From Chloroflexota bacterium (GTDB lineage Bacteria > Chloroflexota > UBA11872 > UBA12225 > JAJDUF01): DNA of 64,000 nucleotides. The stretch's first letter is position 1. The number at the start of each line of letters is the position of its first letter. The notes under the pieces are model-generated. The model was not told where the DNA came from, did not search any database, and saw only the letters and a list, made by a program, of their open reading frames with translations. The stretch lies in contig OZ250185.1 in NCBI GenBank assembly GCA_965238265.1, positions 4,081,031 to 4,145,030 on the forward strand, given 5' to 3'. A program made the translations under genes and the position numbers. Positions 7,997-32,838 of this stretch are shown here, one piece after another.

Positions 7997-8638
7997 ATGA
8001 GTACGGAACGGATGCAGGTGCTAGAGCTGGTCCGCGATGGCAAGGTCTCGGCAGAAGATGGGATGCGCCTCCTAGAGGCGCTCGGCGAGCCGCGGGCGGC
8101 CGAGGAGCAGCCGGCACACGAGGGAACCGTTGCCAACGATCCCTGGGACAGCATTGACACATCTCCCTCCGAGGAGGCGCCGAGAGAGGCCAAGCAGACG
8201 GGTGTCAGGACTGTCACGAGAGCGTCAGCAAGGATAGAGCAAGCGGCCAAACAGCAGGCTACCTCCCTCAGCCTATCATACACCGGGCTAACGCACCTGC
8301 CGCCGGAGATTGGCCAGCTGACACACCTGGAGGAGCTGGATGCCAGCTTCACCGGGCTGACCAAGCTGCCACCGGAGATCGGGCAGCTCACTAACTTGCG
8401 GCGACTGGATGCCAGCTTCACCGGTTTGAGCGAGCTGCCACCGGAAATTGGCCGGCTGAAACATCTGGAGGAGTTAGCGGTCCACCACACCGGACTGACT
8501 GAGCTACCACCGGAGATCGGGCAGCTCACCAGCCTGCAGCGGCTAGATGCCAGCTTTACTGGGCTGCGCGAGCTGCCGCCAGAGCTTGACCAGCTTCCCG
8601 ACCTGGAGCTGGATATCCGCAACACTGGGATCGGCTAA
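7997..8638 (+). CDS. leucine-rich repeat (LRR) protein with a short N-terminal SHOCT-like helix
   Basis: Five consecutive 23-residue repeats of the form LxxLDASFTGLxxLPPEIGQLTxL. The N-terminus MQVLELVRDGKVSAEDGMRLLEAL resembles the SHOCT-like helical motif. Confidence 0.85.
   Translation: MSTERMQVLELVRDGKVSAEDGMRLLEALGEPRAAEEQPAHEGTVANDPWDSIDTSPSEEAPREAKQTGVRTVTRASARIEQAAKQQATSLSLSYTGLTHLPPEIGQLTHLEELDASFTGLTKLPPEIGQLTNLRRLDASFTGLSELPPEIGRLKHLEELAVHHTGLTELPPEIGQLTSLQRLDASFTGLRELPPELDQLPDLELDIRNTGIG
8267..8630 (+). repeat. 69-bp coding tandem repeats (LRR units) inside the LRR gene
   Basis: The DNA unit ctgccgccggagattggccagctgac...gatgccagcttcaccgggctg recurs about 5 times in register with the 23-aa LRR. 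Confidence 0.8.
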
Positions 8639-8929: not shown

Positions 8930-11900
8930 ATGTCCTCGGAATTCGTCCACCTCCACGTCCACTCCGAATACTCCATCCTCGACGGCCTCGCCCGCATCAA
9001 CACCTTGATCGAGCGCACGCGCGAGCTGGGTATGTCGGCGCTCGCGCTCACCGATCATGGCGCGCTGCACGGTGTCGTTGACTTCTATACCGCGGCGCAG
9101 GAGGCCGGCATTCAGCCGATCATCGGCTGCGAAGCCTACGTCGCGCCGCGCCGGATGGACCAGCGCGAGCCGAAAATTGACGACAAGAACTATCACCTCA
9201 CCTTGCTCGCCCAGGATGAAACCGGCTATCGCAACCTGCTCACGCTCTCCTCTCGCGCCCATTTGGACGGCTTCTACTACAAGCCGCGCATTGATCGAGA
9301 CTTGCTCTCGCAGCACCACCACGGGCTGATCTGCCTCTCGGGGTGCCAGTCCGGCGAGGTAGCACGCCTGCTCCTCAATGGTCAGGAGGAACAGGCGCGG
9401 TCGGTAGCGGCGTGGTACCGCGATCTGCTCGGGCCAGAGCGCTACTTCATCGAGCTACAGGATCAGGGCCTCGAGGGGCAAGCCGAACTCAACCGCCAGC
9501 TCGTCACACTGGCGCGTGAGCTGGGCCTGGAAGTGGTCGCCACGAACGATCTGCACTACGTCCGGCCGGAGGAGTCGCGGGCGCACGACATCCTGCTGTG
9601 CGTGCAGACCGGCTCGACCGTCAACGATGAGAAGCGCATGCGGATGGCGACGCCGAATTTCTACCTGCGCTCGCCGGCAGAGATGACCGCCTTGTTTGGC
9701 GAGCTACCGCAGGCGCTACGCAACACCGTGGCTATCGCCGAGCGCTGCCGGCTCACGCTGGAGTTTGATCGCATTCTGCTGCCCCAATTCGACATTCCCG
9801 CCGGCCACACCCCCGATAGCTATCTCCGGCAGCTCTGTGAGGAAGGGTTGGCAACCCGCTACGAGACAGTGACCGAGGCGCATCGCCGGCGGCTCGACTA
9901 CGAGCTGGACGTGATCGCCAAGACGGGCTACGCGCTCTACTTCCTGATCGTTGCGGATTTCGTCAGCTATGCCCGGTCGCGCGGCATCTTGGCCGACCCG
10001 CGGGGATCGGTGGCCGGCAGCATCGTCATCTACTGCCTGGGCATCTCCAACATTGACCCGCTCAGGTACAACATCATGTTCGAGCGGTTCCTGCACGCCG
10101 AGCGCCTGGGCATGCCCGACATTGACATGGATTTCGCCGACGACCGGCGCAGCGAGGTCATCCAATACGTGACCGAGAAGTACGGTCACGATCACGTCGC
10201 GCAAGTCATCACCTTCGGCACGATGGCCGCGCGTGCTGCCGTCCGCGACGTGGGCCGTGTCTTGGGGATGAGCTATGGCGAGGTGGACCGGGTAGCCAAG
10301 GCGATCCCGTTCGGTACGGACTTGGCCGCGGCGCGCAACGTGACCGACGTGCAGAAACTCGTGGCCGAGAATCCGCAAGTCAAAGAGCTGGTCGAACTGG
10401 CCGAGGCGTTGGAAGGCACGCCGCGCAACGCCTCCACGCACGCCGCGGCCGTCGTCATCTCCGCCGATCCCTTGATCGAGCACGTGCCGTTGCAGCGAGC
10501 GACGAAAGATAACAAGGAAGGGAGCCTGAGCAGCATTACCCAGTGGTCTTTCGGGATCATCGAAAAGGTTGGCTTGCTGAAGATGGACTTCCTCGGCCTG
10601 ACCAACCTCACCATCCTCGACCGCGCCGTGCAGTTCGTGCGCGAGCACCGGGGCGAGGAGCTTGATCTCAAAGCGCTGCCGATGGACTACGCCGACGAAC
10701 GGGCAAAGCGGACCTATGACATGCTGGCCCAAGGCCAGACGACGGCCGTGTTCCAGCTGGAGTCCGGCGGCATGCGGCGGTGCCTCAAGCAGCTGCGGCC
10801 CAACCGGATTACCGACCTGATCGCCATTGTGGCCCTCTATCGGCCGGGGCCGATGGAGAGCATCCCCGATTTCGTGGCCGCGAAGAACGGCACTCAGCCG
10901 ATTGCCTACCTCCATCCCGACCTGGAGCCACTGCTGGAGGAGACCTACGGGATCATCGTCTACCAGGATCAAGTGCTCCAGATTGCCCGCAAGATTGCCG
11001 GGTTCTCGTGGGGCGAGGCCGACGTGCTACGCAAAGCCATGGGCAAGAAGATCGCCGCGCTCATGGCCGAGCAGCAGGGTCAGTTCATTGACCGGGCGGT
11101 GCAGCGCGGCTACGACAAGACATTTGCCGAGACACTGTGGCAGCTGATCGAGCCGTTCGCCGGCTATGGGTTCCCCAAGGGGCACGCCGCCTACTATGCG
11201 GTGGTGGCCTATCAGACCGCCTACTTGAAGGCCAACTACCCGGTGGAATACCTGGCGGCGGTGTTGACGGCAGCATCCGGTGACGCGACGAAAGTCGGCG
11301 AGGCCGCGGCCGAGTGCCGGCGCTTGGACGTATCGCTGCTCCCGCCGAGCGTGAACCACAGCGGGTTGGCGTTCCGGATAGCTGACGCTCCGGGGGGCAC
11401 CCATGGGGCGGCGATCCGTTTCGGGCTGGCGGCGATCAAGAATCTCGGCGGCGCTGCTATCCGCAACCTCGTCCAGGCCCGCCAGCAAGATGGTCCGTTC
11501 TCGGACCTCGCCGACCTGTGCCGGCGGGTGGACTTGCGGCAGCTCAATCGCCGAGCACTCGAAAGCATGATTAAAGCCGGCGCACTCGACGATCTCGGTG
11601 AGCGGGCTGCACTCTTGGAGGGTCTGAACAGTGCGTTGGGCTTGGCCCAGACCGAGCAACGCGCCCGGCAGGCCGGACAGCTCTCGCTGCTCGACCAGTT
11701 TGCCGATGAGTCGGACTCTGCGGCAGCCGGTATGGGCTTTGCGTTGCCGGAGGCTGCGCCGGCCGAACGCAAGCAGCGGCTCGGCTGGGAGAAGGAGCTG
11801 CTCGGTCTCTACGTCTCCGAGCATCCGCTGGCGAGCATCGCCCAGAGCCTCGAAGCGGCCAGCACCCATCAGCTCGCTGATCTGAGCGAAGAGCTGGCCG

Positions 11901-29219: not shown

Positions 29220-30788
29220 TTAGAGCTTGGCCTGCAACACGTCCGACGTGGGGTGCAGCGTCCGCAGCCCGGCGATCAGCTTATTGAGGCGGTCGGCCTC
29301 CTGCGCCGCGTTCACATAAGAAATCTCGCCGGCCCACACCTTGTTGATGACGGGCCGCCACGCGCGGGCCATGGGGTACCACCACTCGTGCGCCTGATGC
29401 ACGTAGCGGTAGTTGAACCCATCCATCAGGATGTCCCGCCGGAAGGTATCGGACGGAATGTTGCGATCCGAGTCGAACAGTGCCTTCCAGGTCGGCGGGG
29501 TGTTGCCATGGGTCAGGATGATGTCGCTGGTCTCCGGGCCGGCCAGGTGGGCGGCCAACTCGGCGCTCTCGGCGACGACACCACGGGTGCCGGCCCACTT
29601 GGTGACCATGTGCGCCTGATCCTGCTGGGACACGGCCCGCTCGCCGTTCGCCGGCCATTTCGGCGCGTACATGAAGTCGAACTCGAAGTTCGTGCCGACG
29701 GCCTTGCGGAACGCGGCGCTCGGATACGTGATGAAGAAAGCGTAGTTGCCCTTGGCGGTACTGAGCTTCTTCTCGCTCGCTACCTGTGGTGTCGGCGCGA
29801 CCTGGTGCTTGTGGACGATGTCTTCCCAGAACTGGCCGGCCTGAATCCCGGCGGGCGAATTGAAGAGGTAGTACTCGCCGTTATGGGCACCCGTGTCACC
29901 GCCGATCTGGTACATCGTCATGACATGGTTCCACCAAGCGGGTGCGGGCATCCCGTAGATATTGTTGTCCGGCTCCTGGACCTGCCTGGCCGCGTTGATT
30001 AGGTCGTCGAAGGTCCAGTTCTCGTTCGGCTCGATGCCGTGCCGGTCGAGGATGGACTTGTTGTACATCCAGTCACGGGTAATCACCTGGAACGGCCAGC
30101 CGAAGACCTTCCCGTTCGGATACGGGTAGATCTCGTGCTGCGGGATGCTCACATAGTCATCCATCGCGACCTTGAATTGCTTCAGGTAGGGGGTCAGGTC
30201 CGCGAAGAGACCGCGCTTCGCCCAGTAGACGAAGACATACGCGGCCCACAGGAAGAGGTCGCCCATGTCGTCGGCCGCGATCAGCACCGCCGTCCGCGCG
30301 AAGACACTGTTGCTCTTGGCCTGCTCACGGCCAGCGCTAAAGCGCACGTCTACCGTAACTTCGGGGCGCTGCTCCTTGTAGAGCGCCAGGCTGCGCTTGA
30401 CCACCTCACCACGCGGCCCGTCCGGCCCCCAGTCGGTGTCGAAGAGGATCCGCTTCGGGCCGCTCGACGTGACGGGCACCTCCACCACCTTCTCGACCAC
30501 CTTCTCGACGACAACCGGCTTCTCGACGGTGACCACCTTCTCGACCACCTTCTCGACAACGACCGGCTTCTCCTTCTCGACCACAATGGTCTGACCGGCG
30601 GCCCCGGACGACCCCTTGGCCCCGGCGGAGCCAGCGGCACCCTGCGCACCCTGCACGCCAGCGGGTCCAGCCGGTCCCGCCGGGCCTTGGACGTAGCGAA
30701 TCTCGACTTCACCACAAGCAGCTGCGAGTACGCCCCCCAGCGTTGCGGCTGCGCCACCGAGATACCGTCTGCGGATCACACGTGCCAT
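29220..30788 (-). CDS. extracellular solute-binding lipoprotein (ABC sugar-type SBP) with a long repetitive N-terminal tether
   Basis: Start at 30788 after AAGGAG. Tat-like RRRYLGG plus lipobox LAAAC, then GPAGPAGPAGVQGAQGAAGSAGAKGSSGAAG (Gly-X-Y) and (V)VEKVV repeats, then a family-1 SBP-like body. No permease or ATPase genes are adjacent. Confidence 0.8.
   Translation of the reverse strand: MARVIRRRYLGGAAATLGGVLAAACGEVEIRYVQGPAGPAGPAGVQGAQGAAGSAGAKGSSGAAGQTIVVEKEKPVVVEKVVEKVVTVEKPVVVEKVVEKVVEVPVTSSGPKRILFDTDWGPDGPRGEVVKRSLALYKEQRPEVTVDVRFSAGREQAKSNSVFARTAVLIAADDMGDLFLWAAYVFVYWAKRGLFADLTPYLKQFKVAMDDYVSIPQHEIYPYPNGKVFGWPFQVITRDWMYNKSILDRHGIEPNENWTFDDLINAARQVQEPDNNIYGMPAPAWWNHVMTMYQIGGDTGAHNGEYYLFNSPAGIQAGQFWEDIVHKHQVAPTPQVASEKKLSTAKGNYAFFITYPSAAFRKAVGTNFEFDFMYAPKWPANGERAVSQQDQAHMVTKWAGTRGVVAESAELAAHLAGPETSDIILTHGNTPPTWKALFDSDRNIPSDTFRRDILMDGFNYRYVHQAHEWWYPMARAWRPVINKVWAGEISYVNAAQEADRLNKLIAGLRTLHPTSDVLQAKL
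30470..30590. repeat. coding tandem repeat (VVEKVVEK... tether) in the SBP gene
   Basis: accaccttctcgaccaccttctcgac(g/a)acaaccggcttctc is duplicated in tandem, with a Gly-X-Y-coding stretch directly adjacent (about 30595..30700). Confidence 0.75.
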
Positions 30789-30883
30789 AGCACCCTCCTT
30801 CGGGTTTACCCTGCTCGGTTCACATCTCCTATGAGCGAGGGTCGCGGTCATGCTACACCAATGTCCGGCAGGGAGGCAAACGC

Positions 30884-30911
30884 TTGTCCTGCTTCTGGGA
30901 GAGAGTATAGT
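30884..30911 (+). promoter_or_regulatory. putative sigma70-like promoter feeding the double-HEPN gene
   Basis: TTGTCC (30884..30889), a 16-nt spacer, then TATAGT (30906..30911). The -10 lies inside the left copy of the direct repeat, which corresponds to the -10 region of the GNAT gene. Confidence 0.3.
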
Positions 30912-30946
30912 TGCCCCATACTGCTGCGTGGGGAGCGTGCCGCGCT
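30904..30946 (+). repeat. direct repeat, left copy (degenerate duplicate of the GNAT gene 5' end)
   Basis: AGTATAGTTGCCCCATACTGCTGCGTGGGGAGCGTGCCGCGCT against 32279..32321 AGTATAGTTGTCCCATGCTGCTGCGCGGAGAGCGTGTCGTGCT: 37 of 43 nt identical by my count. In the left copy the ATG is ATA and a TAG follows. Confidence 0.85.
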
Positions 30947-30972
30947 AGACGCGCGAGAAAGGGCAGTGGGGG

Positions 30973-32208
30973 ATGAACACGCCGGATGATTTGACCTTCA
31001 GGGGGTTGGAGGCAAAGCGAAAGGGCCTGGTCGACGATGGTGAGTTCGGTACGTTTTCGTCTGCCCTCGGACTTCGCCCTCGGCGTTGCACCAGTTGGCT
31101 GGAGCGTGCCGAGCGGGAGATGGAGAAAGACCGTCCTGACCACGATGCTGCGTTCATCTTCTACTGGATCGCGTTCAACGCCGCTTATGAAGAAAGCCGG
31201 ACGGGGGCATGCCTGGGGGAAGAAGATAAGAAAAGAAGAGATGTTCTTTTCGACGAAATCATCGCGCTAGACCGCTACGATAAGGTCAGCAATGCAATCC
31301 CAATGAAGTGCAAGGACCCCATCATGGAATTCCTGGACAACAAGTACGTCTTCCAACTCTTCTGGGCGAGGTACAAAAACTGGGAAGAAACTTTGGAAAG
31401 AGAACGAGATGAAGTGGATAGAGCACCACTACTATGGCGTGCAGAGGAACATACCAAAAAGACTCTAAGTATACTATTCGACCGTCTGTACGTGCTGCGT
31501 AATCAGCTTATCCACGGGGGTGCGACTTGGAAGGGTTCGATGAACCGTGAACAGGTCATTTCCGGAGCGCGGACCACGGCCTCCCTGGTCACGCTGTTTA
31601 CCGAACTGATGATGGACAATCCGGACACTGAGCGCGCTCTGCGTTGTCTCAGTTGGCGCGAGCGTGCCGATCAAGAGATGGCGAGGCAAGAACCTGACTA
31701 CGATGCCGCGTTTATTTTCTACTGGATTGCGTTCAACGCCGCCTACGCATGGGGCCGGGGGGAAAGGCGATCTCACCGACCATCACCCCAAGTAGCGGCC
31801 GCTCGCGACGGGTATTTCGGCAAGATCATCAAGCTAGATGACCGCGGGAAGGTCTATGACGTGATCCACGGCAACGAGTACGTCTCCCAACTGCTCAGGA
31901 GTGACCACCAAGGATTGTCAAGGTACAGATACCGGCAATCTCGGTCGCGAGGCGGCCATAGCGTACACGAATCACCCAATGATCAGTATACCAGGCGCAT
32001 TCTATCCCGACTACGCCGACTATTCGACTACCTATATAGTCGGCGCAATCAGCTTATTCATGGTAGCGCGACTTGGAATGACCTGGAAAATCGCGTCCGG
32101 AGCGAGGCCGATGCGCGGATTCTGTCTTCCCTAGTTCCGCTGTTTATTGACTTGATGATGGACAAACCGATGGCTGACTGGGGTGATCCACCCTACCCCG
32201 CCGCGTAG
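30973..32208 (+). CDS. tandem double-HEPN-like protein (two Rx4H motifs in one chain); predicted single-chain RNase, family unassigned
   Basis: 411 aa made of two internal repeats (about residues 38-218 and 222-400). Each has ...ERA..EM....D(H/Y)DAAFIFYWIAFNAAY and then (L/R)RNQLIHG(G/S)ATW: R176-H181 at 31498..31515 and R358-H363 at 32044..32061. The gene is AT-richer than its flanks (27-32 G+C per 60 nt in 31201..31380). Confidence 0.75.
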   Translation: MNTPDDLTFRGLEAKRKGLVDDGEFGTFSSALGLRPRRCTSWLERAEREMEKDRPDHDAAFIFYWIAFNAAYEESRTGACLGEEDKKRRDVLFDEIIALDRYDKVSNAIPMKCKDPIMEFLDNKYVFQLFWARYKNWEETLERERDEVDRAPLLWRAEEHTKKTLSILFDRLYVLRNQLIHGGATWKGSMNREQVISGARTTASLVTLFTELMMDNPDTERALRCLSWRERADQEMARQEPDYDAAFIFYWIAFNAAYAWGRGERRSHRPSPQVAAARDGYFGKIIKLDDRGKVYDVIHGNEYVSQLLRSDHQGLSRYRYRQSRSRGGHSVHESPNDQYTRRILSRLRRLFDYLYSRRNQLIHGSATWNDLENRVRSEADARILSSLVPLFIDLMMDKPMADWGDPPYPAA

Positions 32209-32278
32209 CCACATAGCAAGCGCCCGTGAGTAGCGGGCGGCGACGCAGGGAGCGTGATAGTTGCCACCGGGGCCGTGC

Positions 32279-32321
32279 AGTATAGTTGTCCCATGCTGCT
32301 GCGCGGAGAGCGTGTCGTGCT
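32279..32321 (+). repeat. direct repeat, right copy (functional 5' end of the GNAT gene)
   Basis: See 30904..30946. A further partial copy, gggagcgtgatagttgccacc, lies at 32248..32268 (compare gggagagagtatagttgcccc at 30897..30917). Confidence 0.85.
32281..32293 (+). promoter_or_regulatory. putative -10 box placed for a leaderless GNAT transcript
   Basis: TATAGT at 32281..32286. The A of the ATG at 32293 is the 7th nt downstream and there is no SD, a geometry typical of leaderless mRNAs. Confidence 0.3.
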
Positions 32322-32838
32322 GCGTGAGGCCCGGACGAGGGATCGGGCCGAGCTGGAGCGGCTACGGGCGGACCCTGAGATTGACCGTTACATGGGGGTG
32401 GACGCCGCGCCGGAGGGGTCCATCTTGAATCGCGTCTTCGTAGGATCAGCCAGCGGCGCATTGGCCGACTATGTGCTCCAACGTCCGGCGGGCCGGATCA
32501 TCGGGCTGCTCTCGTTCTGGGAACGAGCCGTGCCCCACCACGCCGCCGAGGTGTCCATCTGGCTGGCCCGCGACTATCGCGGCCGCGGCTACGGCACGGA
32601 TGCCCTAATCCTGGGCCTCCGGCACGTCTTCGAGCGCTTCCGCTTACATAAGATTTACCTGCGGGTGCTGTGGTACAACACGGCGGCTATCCGCTGCTAC
32701 GAACGCTGCGGTTTTCGCAAAGAAGGAGTGCTGCGTCAGGAGATGTGCGTCGAGGGCATGTGGCATGACCTCATCTATATGGGCGTGCTGCGCTCCGAGT
32801 TCGACGCGCCTTCATCCGGCGGGGCGGGGAAGTCGTAG
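32293..32838 (+). CDS. GNAT-family N-acetyltransferase (RimJ/RimL-like)
   Basis: MLLRGERVVLREARTRDRAELERLRADPEI... and RGRGYGTDAL (acetyl-CoA Q/RxxGxG/A motif) ...RCYERCGFRKEG. The ATG at 32293 is preferred over the ORF-track start at 32254. Confidence 0.85.
   Translation: MLLRGERVVLREARTRDRAELERLRADPEIDRYMGVDAAPEGSILNRVFVGSASGALADYVLQRPAGRIIGLLSFWERAVPHHAAEVSIWLARDYRGRGYGTDALILGLRHVFERFRLHKIYLRVLWYNTAAIRCYERCGFRKEGVLRQEMCVEGMWHDLIYMGVLRSEFDAPSSGGAGKS

Follow-up and report, generated by a model that had tools for sequence, protein, structure and literature searches.

The stretch of DNA considered here, referred to as the window, comprises 64,000 nucleotides of a Chloroflexota genome (contig OZ250185.1, positions 4,081,031 to 4,145,030 of the forward strand). 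An open reading frame (ORF) with an ATG start, located at 30973-32208 on the + strand, encodes a 411-aa product composed of two successive copies of one helical unit, each carrying an Rx4H motif, and probably of HEPN type. The gene lies between that of an ABC substrate-binding protein (SBP) and that of a GNAT, followed by a GT4 glycosyltransferase gene, an arrangement found in all syntenic genomes; in the window, the neighbours are SBP, GNAT, GT4, creatininase and HD. The same protein, identical, is found on a 1.5-Mb contig with 70x coverage. The features of the gene are the following, with the basis of each where relevant:

30973..32208, + strand: whole gene, single-chain double HEPN-like protein, stop codon included (ORF)
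30973..31074, + strand: N-terminal leader, residues 1-34, with a helix at 9-21 (profile alignment); single occurrence, equivalent to the leader of single-copy members
31075..31626, + strand: HEPN-like copy 1, residues 35-218 (BLASTP, profile, AlphaFold2 (AF2) helices)
31498..31515, + strand: Rx4H motif 1, R176-N-Q-L-I-H181, at the end of helix 3
31633..32172, + strand: HEPN-like copy 2, residues 221-400 (BLASTP, AF2, profile domain 2)
31747..31980, + strand: decaying insert of copy 2, residues 259-336 (signature loss, predicted local distance difference test (pLDDT), ratio of nonsynonymous to synonymous substitution rates (dN/dS))
32044..32061, + strand: Rx4H motif 2, R358-N-Q-L-I-H363, at the end of helix 337-362
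32173..32205, + strand: C-terminal tail DWGDPPYPAA; single occurrence, equivalent to the NPxxDWGxPxYP end conserved in the family

Internal duplication and selection on the two copies

A preliminary description of the locus, made from the sequence alone, had proposed that the product is an internal tandem duplication. This is confirmed at the protein level, where BLASTP aligns the two halves (residues 1-222 against 217-411) with E=5e-33 and 40% identity, residues 35-217 corresponding to 221-399, and at the DNA level, where direct repeats with a spacing of 546-558 nt span the same blocks. The positions given for the two motifs (R176-H181 at 31498-31515, R358-H363 at 32044-32061) are exact, as is the count for the DNA blocks 31138-31190 and 31696-31748, which have 45/53 nt in common with 6/8 differences being synonymous. 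In hmmsearch, a first domain covers positions 6-216 of the family profile and a second domain positions 33-224 (score 206). The leader is present once, at the front, the tail once, at the end, and copy 2 starts from profile position 33; the simplest origin is an intragenic tandem duplication of codons ~35-218, giving the order leader, core 1, core 2, tail.

The AF2 models of the full-length protein (pLDDT 86.3, predicted template modelling score (pTM) 0.88) and of the N half alone (pLDDT 85.9) are composed of helices throughout, in agreement with the all-helical scaffold proposed earlier. Copy 1 consists of H1 (31-51), H2 (57-72, opened by the acidic residues D56/D58), H3 (157-180) and H4 (192-215), with a helical insert (73-156, including NKYVFQLFW) between the two hairpins. 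RNQLIH closes helix 157-180; a loop and helix 192-215 come next, and the same order is found in the second half. The junction between the copies is of about 3 residues, H4 ending at 215 and the next helix starting from 219. In the insert of copy 2, which is R/S-rich and modelled with a pLDDT of 47-62, the FQPFW...W signature has gone (GNEYVSQLLRSDHQG). Motif 2 is kept in 5/5 orthologous doubles and in every independent double, while an extra R....H at residues 324-329 (RSRGGH), located in sequence of low complexity, shows no conservation.

Selection was evaluated by dN/dS (Nei-Gojobori) against three orthologues. Copy 1 as a whole (residues 35-218) has a ratio of 0.27-0.42 and the core helices of both halves 0.11-0.29 (H1-H2 of copy 1, 0.11-0.19; H1-H2 of copy 2, 0.24-0.29; H3-H4 of copy 2, 0.26-0.29). 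The insert of copy 2 (residues 259-336) reaches 0.59-0.89, and is mostly deleted in two of the orthologous doubles (P0004 and P0005). The core helices and the motif of both copies are therefore under purifying selection, in line with what had been claimed for the two halves, and the decay of the insert combined with constraint on the core indicates that copy 2 is kept as a four-helix core unit with its motif, the insert being dispensable. This shedding of an insert subdomain by the second copy had been overlooked.

The family of the single unit and its recurrent doubles

Also overlooked was the membership of each half in a large family of single-copy proteins, which the NCBI pipeline already labels HEPN. 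A word-indexed search recovers 2,089 relatives, with no precomputed Pfam domain and no match to an NCBIfam model, and an exhaustive profile search recovers 2,388 representatives at 50% identity with E<=1e-3 (554 at E<=1e-30). Nearly all members are single-domain proteins of 215-260 aa (~225 aa), and those carried by plasmids are named just 'HEPN domain-containing protein' by the NCBI pipeline PGAP. The family signature comprises LRxxRxxSWLxRAE, DxDAAFIFYWIAFNAAY, NxYVFQPFW...W, FDRLYVLRNQLxHGGATW, NRxQVxDG and NPxxDWGxPxYP. R176, Q178, H181 and G182 are invariant across a 51-member set, and in 130 diverse members the motif R, Q and G are invariant and the H is conserved in at least 90%. At least 544 family loci have been confirmed among 185,579 species genomes, with a patchy distribution over unrelated phyla. 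With ~2,400 clusters, this would be a sizeable, unstudied and partner-less HEPN family, lying outside the Pfam, NCBIfam and PADLOC models above threshold, and its evolutionary pattern resembles that of a conflict gene. One member (P0140, 528 aa) has its HEPN-like unit at 313-527, after an unrelated N-terminal region of 312 aa (MSPLFDSYLIVDWSANSTPKTGKDSIWW...) that has no Pfam match and may be a sensor or partner domain.

The family probably belongs to HEPN. In a Pfam scan of the 411-aa protein, the sole match is PF18735 (RiboL-PSP-HEPN), at 17.5 bits for a cut-off of 28.4, over residues 131-212 of copy 1. The same model is matched by 11/51 and 29/130 members (best E 3e-5), HEPN_Apea by 2/130 members (E>=0.015) and HEPN_Cthe2314 by one, while each non-HEPN Pfam family is matched by one member only. 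Weak PADLOC matches are mainly to CARF_HEPN, Csx1, Cas13b (2/51 members, E 0.022) and RT-HEPN models, the non-HEPN models PDC-M11A and ThsB/TIR-like being matched by one member each with E>0.06. Searches of PDB sequences with the protein and two profiles give nothing significant, the best match being the motif helix of ApeA (E 0.4-1.3; E 0.4 and top of the list with the diverse profile). All profile matches are below curated thresholds and lie mainly over the motif helix. In the two AF2 models, the predicted order of helices agrees with the description of HEPN in PMC3710099, an agreement that concerns helix order only.

Tandem doubles represent ~3% of the top 150 representatives. Four further genomes carry the same double architecture as the window (P0002-P0005, 62-74% identical), and in a neighbour-joining (NJ) tree without support values the N halves and the C halves form two clades of mirrored topology, which places a single duplication event before the divergence of the five sequenced lineages; the reading frame of the double is open in all five. 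Elsewhere in the family, at least four further groups of doubles have halves that are mutually closest in the NJ tree, again without support values (P0009/P0121, P0012/14/15, P0129, P0239/P0252), and judging from these relationships doubles appear to have arisen independently at least four times. In long-linker doubles both copies are complete, while in compact doubles (P0129, P0239, P0252 and the window clade) one copy is devoid of profile positions ~106-160, and all doubles keep both Rx4H motifs. This pattern of loss is the one that would arise in a family acting as dimers, with one insert sufficient per dimer. Two of the database proteins, P0005 (L004 5930-6150) and P0006, are frameshift products of low-coverage long-read contigs, and their odd termini correspond to alternative-frame ORFs of the window (31037-31270, 31664-31795).

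The chromosomal slot, plasmids and the search for partners

In eight loci syntenic with the window, the flanking proteins are 89-96% identical to their window counterparts, with the exceptions of GNAT (81-90%) and of the GT4 of one locus (L091, 73%), while the HEPN unit at the same loci is just 41-77% identical. In related Chloroflexota, exactly the same slot may be occupied by a single-copy member (L006 (P0007), L007, L009 (P0019), L017). Rates estimated from the P0003/P0004 genome pair amount to dN 0.012 and dS 0.13 for SBP, dN 0.008 and dS 0.13 for GNAT, and dN 0.178 and dS 0.417 for the HEPN gene, whose dN is 15-20x and dS ~3x that of the flanks. The flanking genes, read from the same contigs of low coverage, provide an internal check on sequencing errors. 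The elevated dS points to an exchange of alleles or to alleles older than the genomes, and not to relaxed constraint alone. By these comparisons, the locus is hypervariable within a conserved backbone, with the double as a lineage-specific allele beside single-copy alleles, a situation missed in the preliminary description.

That description had placed the G+C content of the gene at 45-53%, below the flanks; the direction is correct and the value slightly low, the whole gene having 54.5% (50-57% in 400-nt windows), compared with 64.6% over the window and 65-70% in the flanks, and a GC content at third codon positions (GC3) of 0.62 against 0.79-0.85 in its neighbours. As low GC is common to all alleles of the slot (54-56% versus 64-67%), it is no mark of recent transfer into the window genome, and was rejected as such. 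The deficit of ~11 points (GC3 0.62 versus ~0.8) is observed in the window, L003, L004, L006, L007, L009 and L017 despite long residence; continual import of alleles, amino-acid composition or low expression are possible causes.

Outside the coding sequence, three elements accompany the gene:

30884-30911, + strand: promoter-like TTGTCC-16-TATAGT upstream of the HEPN gene, the sole promoter-like site for this gene
30904-30946, + strand: upstream copy of a 43-nt repeat, relic of a GNAT 5' end (ATA for ATG, ILLRGERAAL)
32279-32321, + strand: downstream copy of the 43-nt repeat, holding TATAGT and the probable GNAT start (ATG 32293, MLLRGERVVLR)

The upstream control region (30884..30946) is present in all syntenic loci, with 82% mean identity and long invariant blocks. 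The HEPN gene is bracketed by the two copies of the 43-nt direct repeat (86% identical). As every syntenic locus has both copies, this gene seems to have been inserted long ago at the 5' end of GNAT, with duplication of the GNAT promoter. An empty site was sought via GNAT orthologues in JGI metagenomes, where no close relative was found. The 5' untranslated region (5'UTR) of the HEPN gene (30912-30972) shows much stronger conservation than the coding sequence, including long blocks without any change, and contains a potential stem (ACUGCU with GGCAGU) beside a G-rich ribosome-binding stretch; the predicted pairs are all invariant, hence covariation gives no evidence for or against the 5'UTR as a structured RNA partner. 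For the GNAT ORF (32254-32838), the GTG start at 32254 is probably wrong and ATG 32293 likelier; as this ATG lies 6 nt after the TATAGT box, the GNAT mRNA would be leaderless or near-leaderless. GNAT calls vary among related loci (194-aa versus 173/181-aa versions), and the 'truncated GNAT' of L004, considered as a sign that GNAT is dispensable, was dropped because it results from one 1-nt indel in a long-read contig of 6x coverage.

The preliminary description had reported no known partner, and this holds for the window and the loci surveyed, in which no MNT, CRISPR array, RNA or conserved partner was detected. No MNT, CRISPR array or small ORF adjoins the gene, the 64-kb window contains no array-like repeat and no Rfam CRISPR repeat family, and no NTP_transf family is found among window neighbours. 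Near the gene, Rfam gives nothing at E<=1, and in 14 diverse loci neither RF03085 nor any other family reaches its gathering score. The survey of homologues for conserved neighbours, extended to 80 loci from Chloroflexota, Acidobacteriota, Alpha- and Gammaproteobacteria, Verrucomicrobiota and Bacteroidota, yields none family-wide, and flanks are not conserved outside syntenic groups. GNAT stands beside the family gene in the syntenic Chloroflexota clade only, being absent at the other ~75 genome loci and at the plasmid loci. No endoRNase L-PSP fusion and no ParB operon were found in the window, the 80 genome loci or the plasmid loci. Two candidate signals were discarded in the course of this survey: apparent clusters of conserved neighbours in the 80 loci were shadow ORFs overlapping the gene itself, and paralogue tandem arrays in Acidobacteriota loci were dropped, the hidden Markov model showing one domain per locus.

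Family members are also carried by 24 plasmids, 15 of which are conjugative. In the four plasmids inspected, the member lies beside DUF3883/NOV_C, WYL, RecB-like nuclease, HipA or insertion sequence genes. In plasmids of Alphaproteobacteria, DUF3883/NOV_C, a predicted restriction-endonuclease-like domain, comes 3-5 nt after the single-copy gene (L086 4675-5532, L087 4652-5485); a WYL regulator adjoins the gene in L087, L088 and L049, and a TM0106 RecB-like nuclease is near it in L087 and L088. These plasmid neighbours may form a local module unseen in Chloroflexota.

Some other variable or repetitive sequences were noticed around the slot. In L004, an nSTAND1/AAA_16 ATPase gene (8950-10194, - strand) is inserted between GT4 and creatininase; the window has no such gene at 33.0-35.1 kb, which defines a second variable spot ~2 kb downstream of the HEPN slot. 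The SBP gene (29220-30851, - strand) encodes, in its N-terminal part, collagen-like Gly-X-Y sequence, together with a (VVEK)n repeat (30477-30601), corresponding to 12/18/48-nt tandem repeats in the DNA and giving weak matches to collagen-like adhesin models. Unrelated to the HEPN gene, a 69-nt (23-codon) tandem repeat of 4.6 copies is located at 8281-8595 of the window, its length and imperfect copies suggesting that it is coding.

Interpretation and comparison with known systems

In our view, it is reasonably probable that the product is a pseudo-dimer made by covalent fusion of two units of a widespread, partner-less HEPN-like family, most likely acting as an RNA-cleaving conflict effector. 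HEPN nucleases are dimers with a composite Rx4-6H site (PMC3710099; bioRxiv 10.64898/2026.01.26.701840). By analogy, the two halves would pack as a pseudo-dimer, and R176/H181 and R358/H363 would meet at the half-half interface to form one composite, metal-independent RNase site. Fusion would make the dimer obligatory and symmetry unneeded, so that the insert would be required once only. The single-chain pTM and the recurrence of tandem fusions support the pseudo-dimer. Fast divergence, patchy occurrence among phyla and presence on conjugative plasmids beside conflict genes suggest a conflict gene, and with this evolutionary pattern and these plasmid contexts, the RNA-cleaving effector may serve in defence or abortive infection. 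Since no protein or RNA antidote lies nearby, its control would be either intrinsic (a trigger or a narrow substrate, as in ApeA) or exerted via expression.

Several observations weigh against this interpretation. The neighbourhood in the window is metabolic and envelope-related, not a defence island, and phage records contain no match to the family. None of the window protein and members tested passes a curated HEPN model, no member reaching the gathering threshold of PF18735 (best 24.5 bits for 28.4). The fold comparison with predicted models (Foldseek with both models, full-length and single-domain, against PDB, and with the latter against BFVD) gives no match at E<=0.001, and the top 50 include no HEPN chain, despite the solved structures of AbiF, ApeA, Csm6 and HEPN toxins. 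With respect to the origin of the double, the C-half clade is not beside the N-half clade in the NJ tree, making a fusion of two divergent alleles possible.

Would the unit then be another all-helical fold, with a non-nuclease role and an R-x4-H helix by chance? The three Foldseek searches, made with confident models, and profile matches mostly limited to the motif helix speak for it. However, the best Foldseek values (E 0.36-0.92, template modelling (TM) score 0.1-0.4) return no alternative fold, and because no fold of any kind matched, these searches were treated as uninformative. In addition, weak matches converge on at least six different HEPN models, the order of helices and the place of the motif agree with HEPN as defined in the literature, and recurrent tandem fusions are the expectation for an obligate dimer, which together make a non-HEPN unit very improbable. 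The HEPN assignment of the preliminary description is thus retained in that the only recurrent profile signal is of HEPN type, without a curated model having been passed or a HEPN structure recovered. Slightly less improbable is that the second copy would be a degenerating passenger, the N halves of separate chains still dimerising into the working enzyme, and the fusion being functionally meaningless. The near-neutral rate, low pLDDT and partial deletion (P0004, P0005) of the copy 2 insert, and the long branch of C halves in the tree, are compatible with decay. In contrast, the core of copy 2 is as constrained as that of copy 1 and retains the motif R, Q, H and G together with R221, R224, S227, W228, FYWIAFNAAY and NR, the frame is open in all five lineages, and independent doubles likewise pair a full copy with a shortened one while retaining both motifs.

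The conflict role itself has a more serious competitor, although one that we regard as unlikely: a housekeeping or stress RNA-processing enzyme, with a narrow substrate (e.g. a specific tRNA or rRNA), harmless and antidote-free, and neither a toxin nor a defence effector. Such an enzyme would be at ease among metabolic and envelope genes, with no antitoxin, MNT or RNA partner found in the family, no phage record carrying it, a position held through the divergence of nine related genomes and a conserved promoter region of its own. Against it stand the patchy distribution over unrelated phyla and the carriage on conjugative plasmids beside conflict genes; it would also be unusual for such an enzyme to combine single and double alleles in one slot with dN and dS so far above those of the flanks. 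Far less credible is a two-gene module with the downstream GNAT acetyltransferase, as toxin and antidote or the reverse. The two genes are on the same strand, 46-85 nt apart, adjacent in 9/9 syntenic loci and preceded by copies of the same promoter-like element, but this association is confined to one closely related Chloroflexota clade, the GNAT 5' relic that precedes the HEPN gene indicates a later insertion of the latter next to a pre-existing GNAT, and GNAT evolves slowly beside a hypervariable gene. Moreover, this GNAT is RimJ/AAC(6')-like (Acetyltransf_3), and no GNAT model of toxin-antitoxin toxins is matched.

If the fused pseudo-dimer is accepted as the preferred reading, what is new is an unclassified HEPN-like family with a recent, lineage-specific single-chain allele, another HEPN in itself being of little surprise to specialists. 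The coexistence of single and double alleles at one slot, together with independent fusions, makes the consequences of fusion testable (obligate dimer, asymmetry, loss of the insert), and a self-contained, predicted two-HEPN nuclease of 411 aa could provide a minimal scaffold for enzymology.

Among known families, the closest by sequence appears to be RiboL-PSP-HEPN, described as distantly related to AbiD/AbiF (Anantharaman et al. 2013), although threshold and contexts fail. The likeness consists of the matched H3 - Rx4H - H4 region (model ~100-188 of 191), the all-helical structure and the RN...H motif. However, all matches are <28.4 bits, the contexts defining RiboL-PSP-HEPN (endoRNase L-PSP fusion or ParB operon; PMC3710099, Table 1) are not found here, and LRxxRxxSW, DxDAAFIFYWIAFNAAY and the NxYVFQPFW insert are specific to the present family. 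Unlike HEPN-MNT systems, there is no adjacent MNT gene, and unlike AbiF/AbiFr, there is neither RF03085 or another conserved RNA nor an Abi_2 match in 130 members. ApeA, a solo HEPN gated by ligand, is a tRNA anticodon nuclease activated by deoxydinucleotides (bioRxiv 10.64898/2026.01.26.701840), and offers an example of a solo HEPN silenced without an antitoxin. It resembles the present family in being partner-less and is the top match among PDB sequences, along the catalytic helix (FRRLYRQRNIVLHGGST versus fdrLYvLRnQllHGgatW), with a marginal E of 0.4, but it has ~550 aa, forms decamers and contains N-terminal and Mid domains (ligand pocket), compared with a ~185-aa unit with no extra domains here.

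HEPN RNases are normally homodimers, and the route from there to a single chain bears on the origin of Cas13, which has been proposed to descend from the fusion of two AbiD/F-type HEPN genes (PMC12165695). As in Cas13/Cas13an, the window protein has two HEPN-type motifs per chain, with dimerisation expected inside that chain, and derives from fusion or duplication of closely related units. It differs by having no CRISPR array in the 64-kb window, no CRISPR RNA and no recognition lobe, and as its halves are still 40-48% identical, the event is recent. A bolder proposal, which we hold to be rather doubtful, is that the family is a living record of this proposed step in the origin of Cas13, and the window protein a new partner-less, asymmetric defence effector, cued by infection and not released from an antitoxin. 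If true, repeated, independent and recent fusions would range from long-linker doubles with complete copies to compact doubles with one insert shed. Single-chain HEPN pairs outside Cas13 have a precedent that the preliminary description had missed. In Csm6-2, for which the passage to a single chain has just been shown, CARF-HEPN-CARF-HEPN in tandem forms an intramolecular dimer with functional asymmetry (PMC13187428). The window protein has no CARF sensor or type III CRISPR context and is about half the size; what the two share, according to prediction for the window protein, is a homodimeric HEPN effector fused into one chain, with functional asymmetry in the former and the loss of one insert in the latter.

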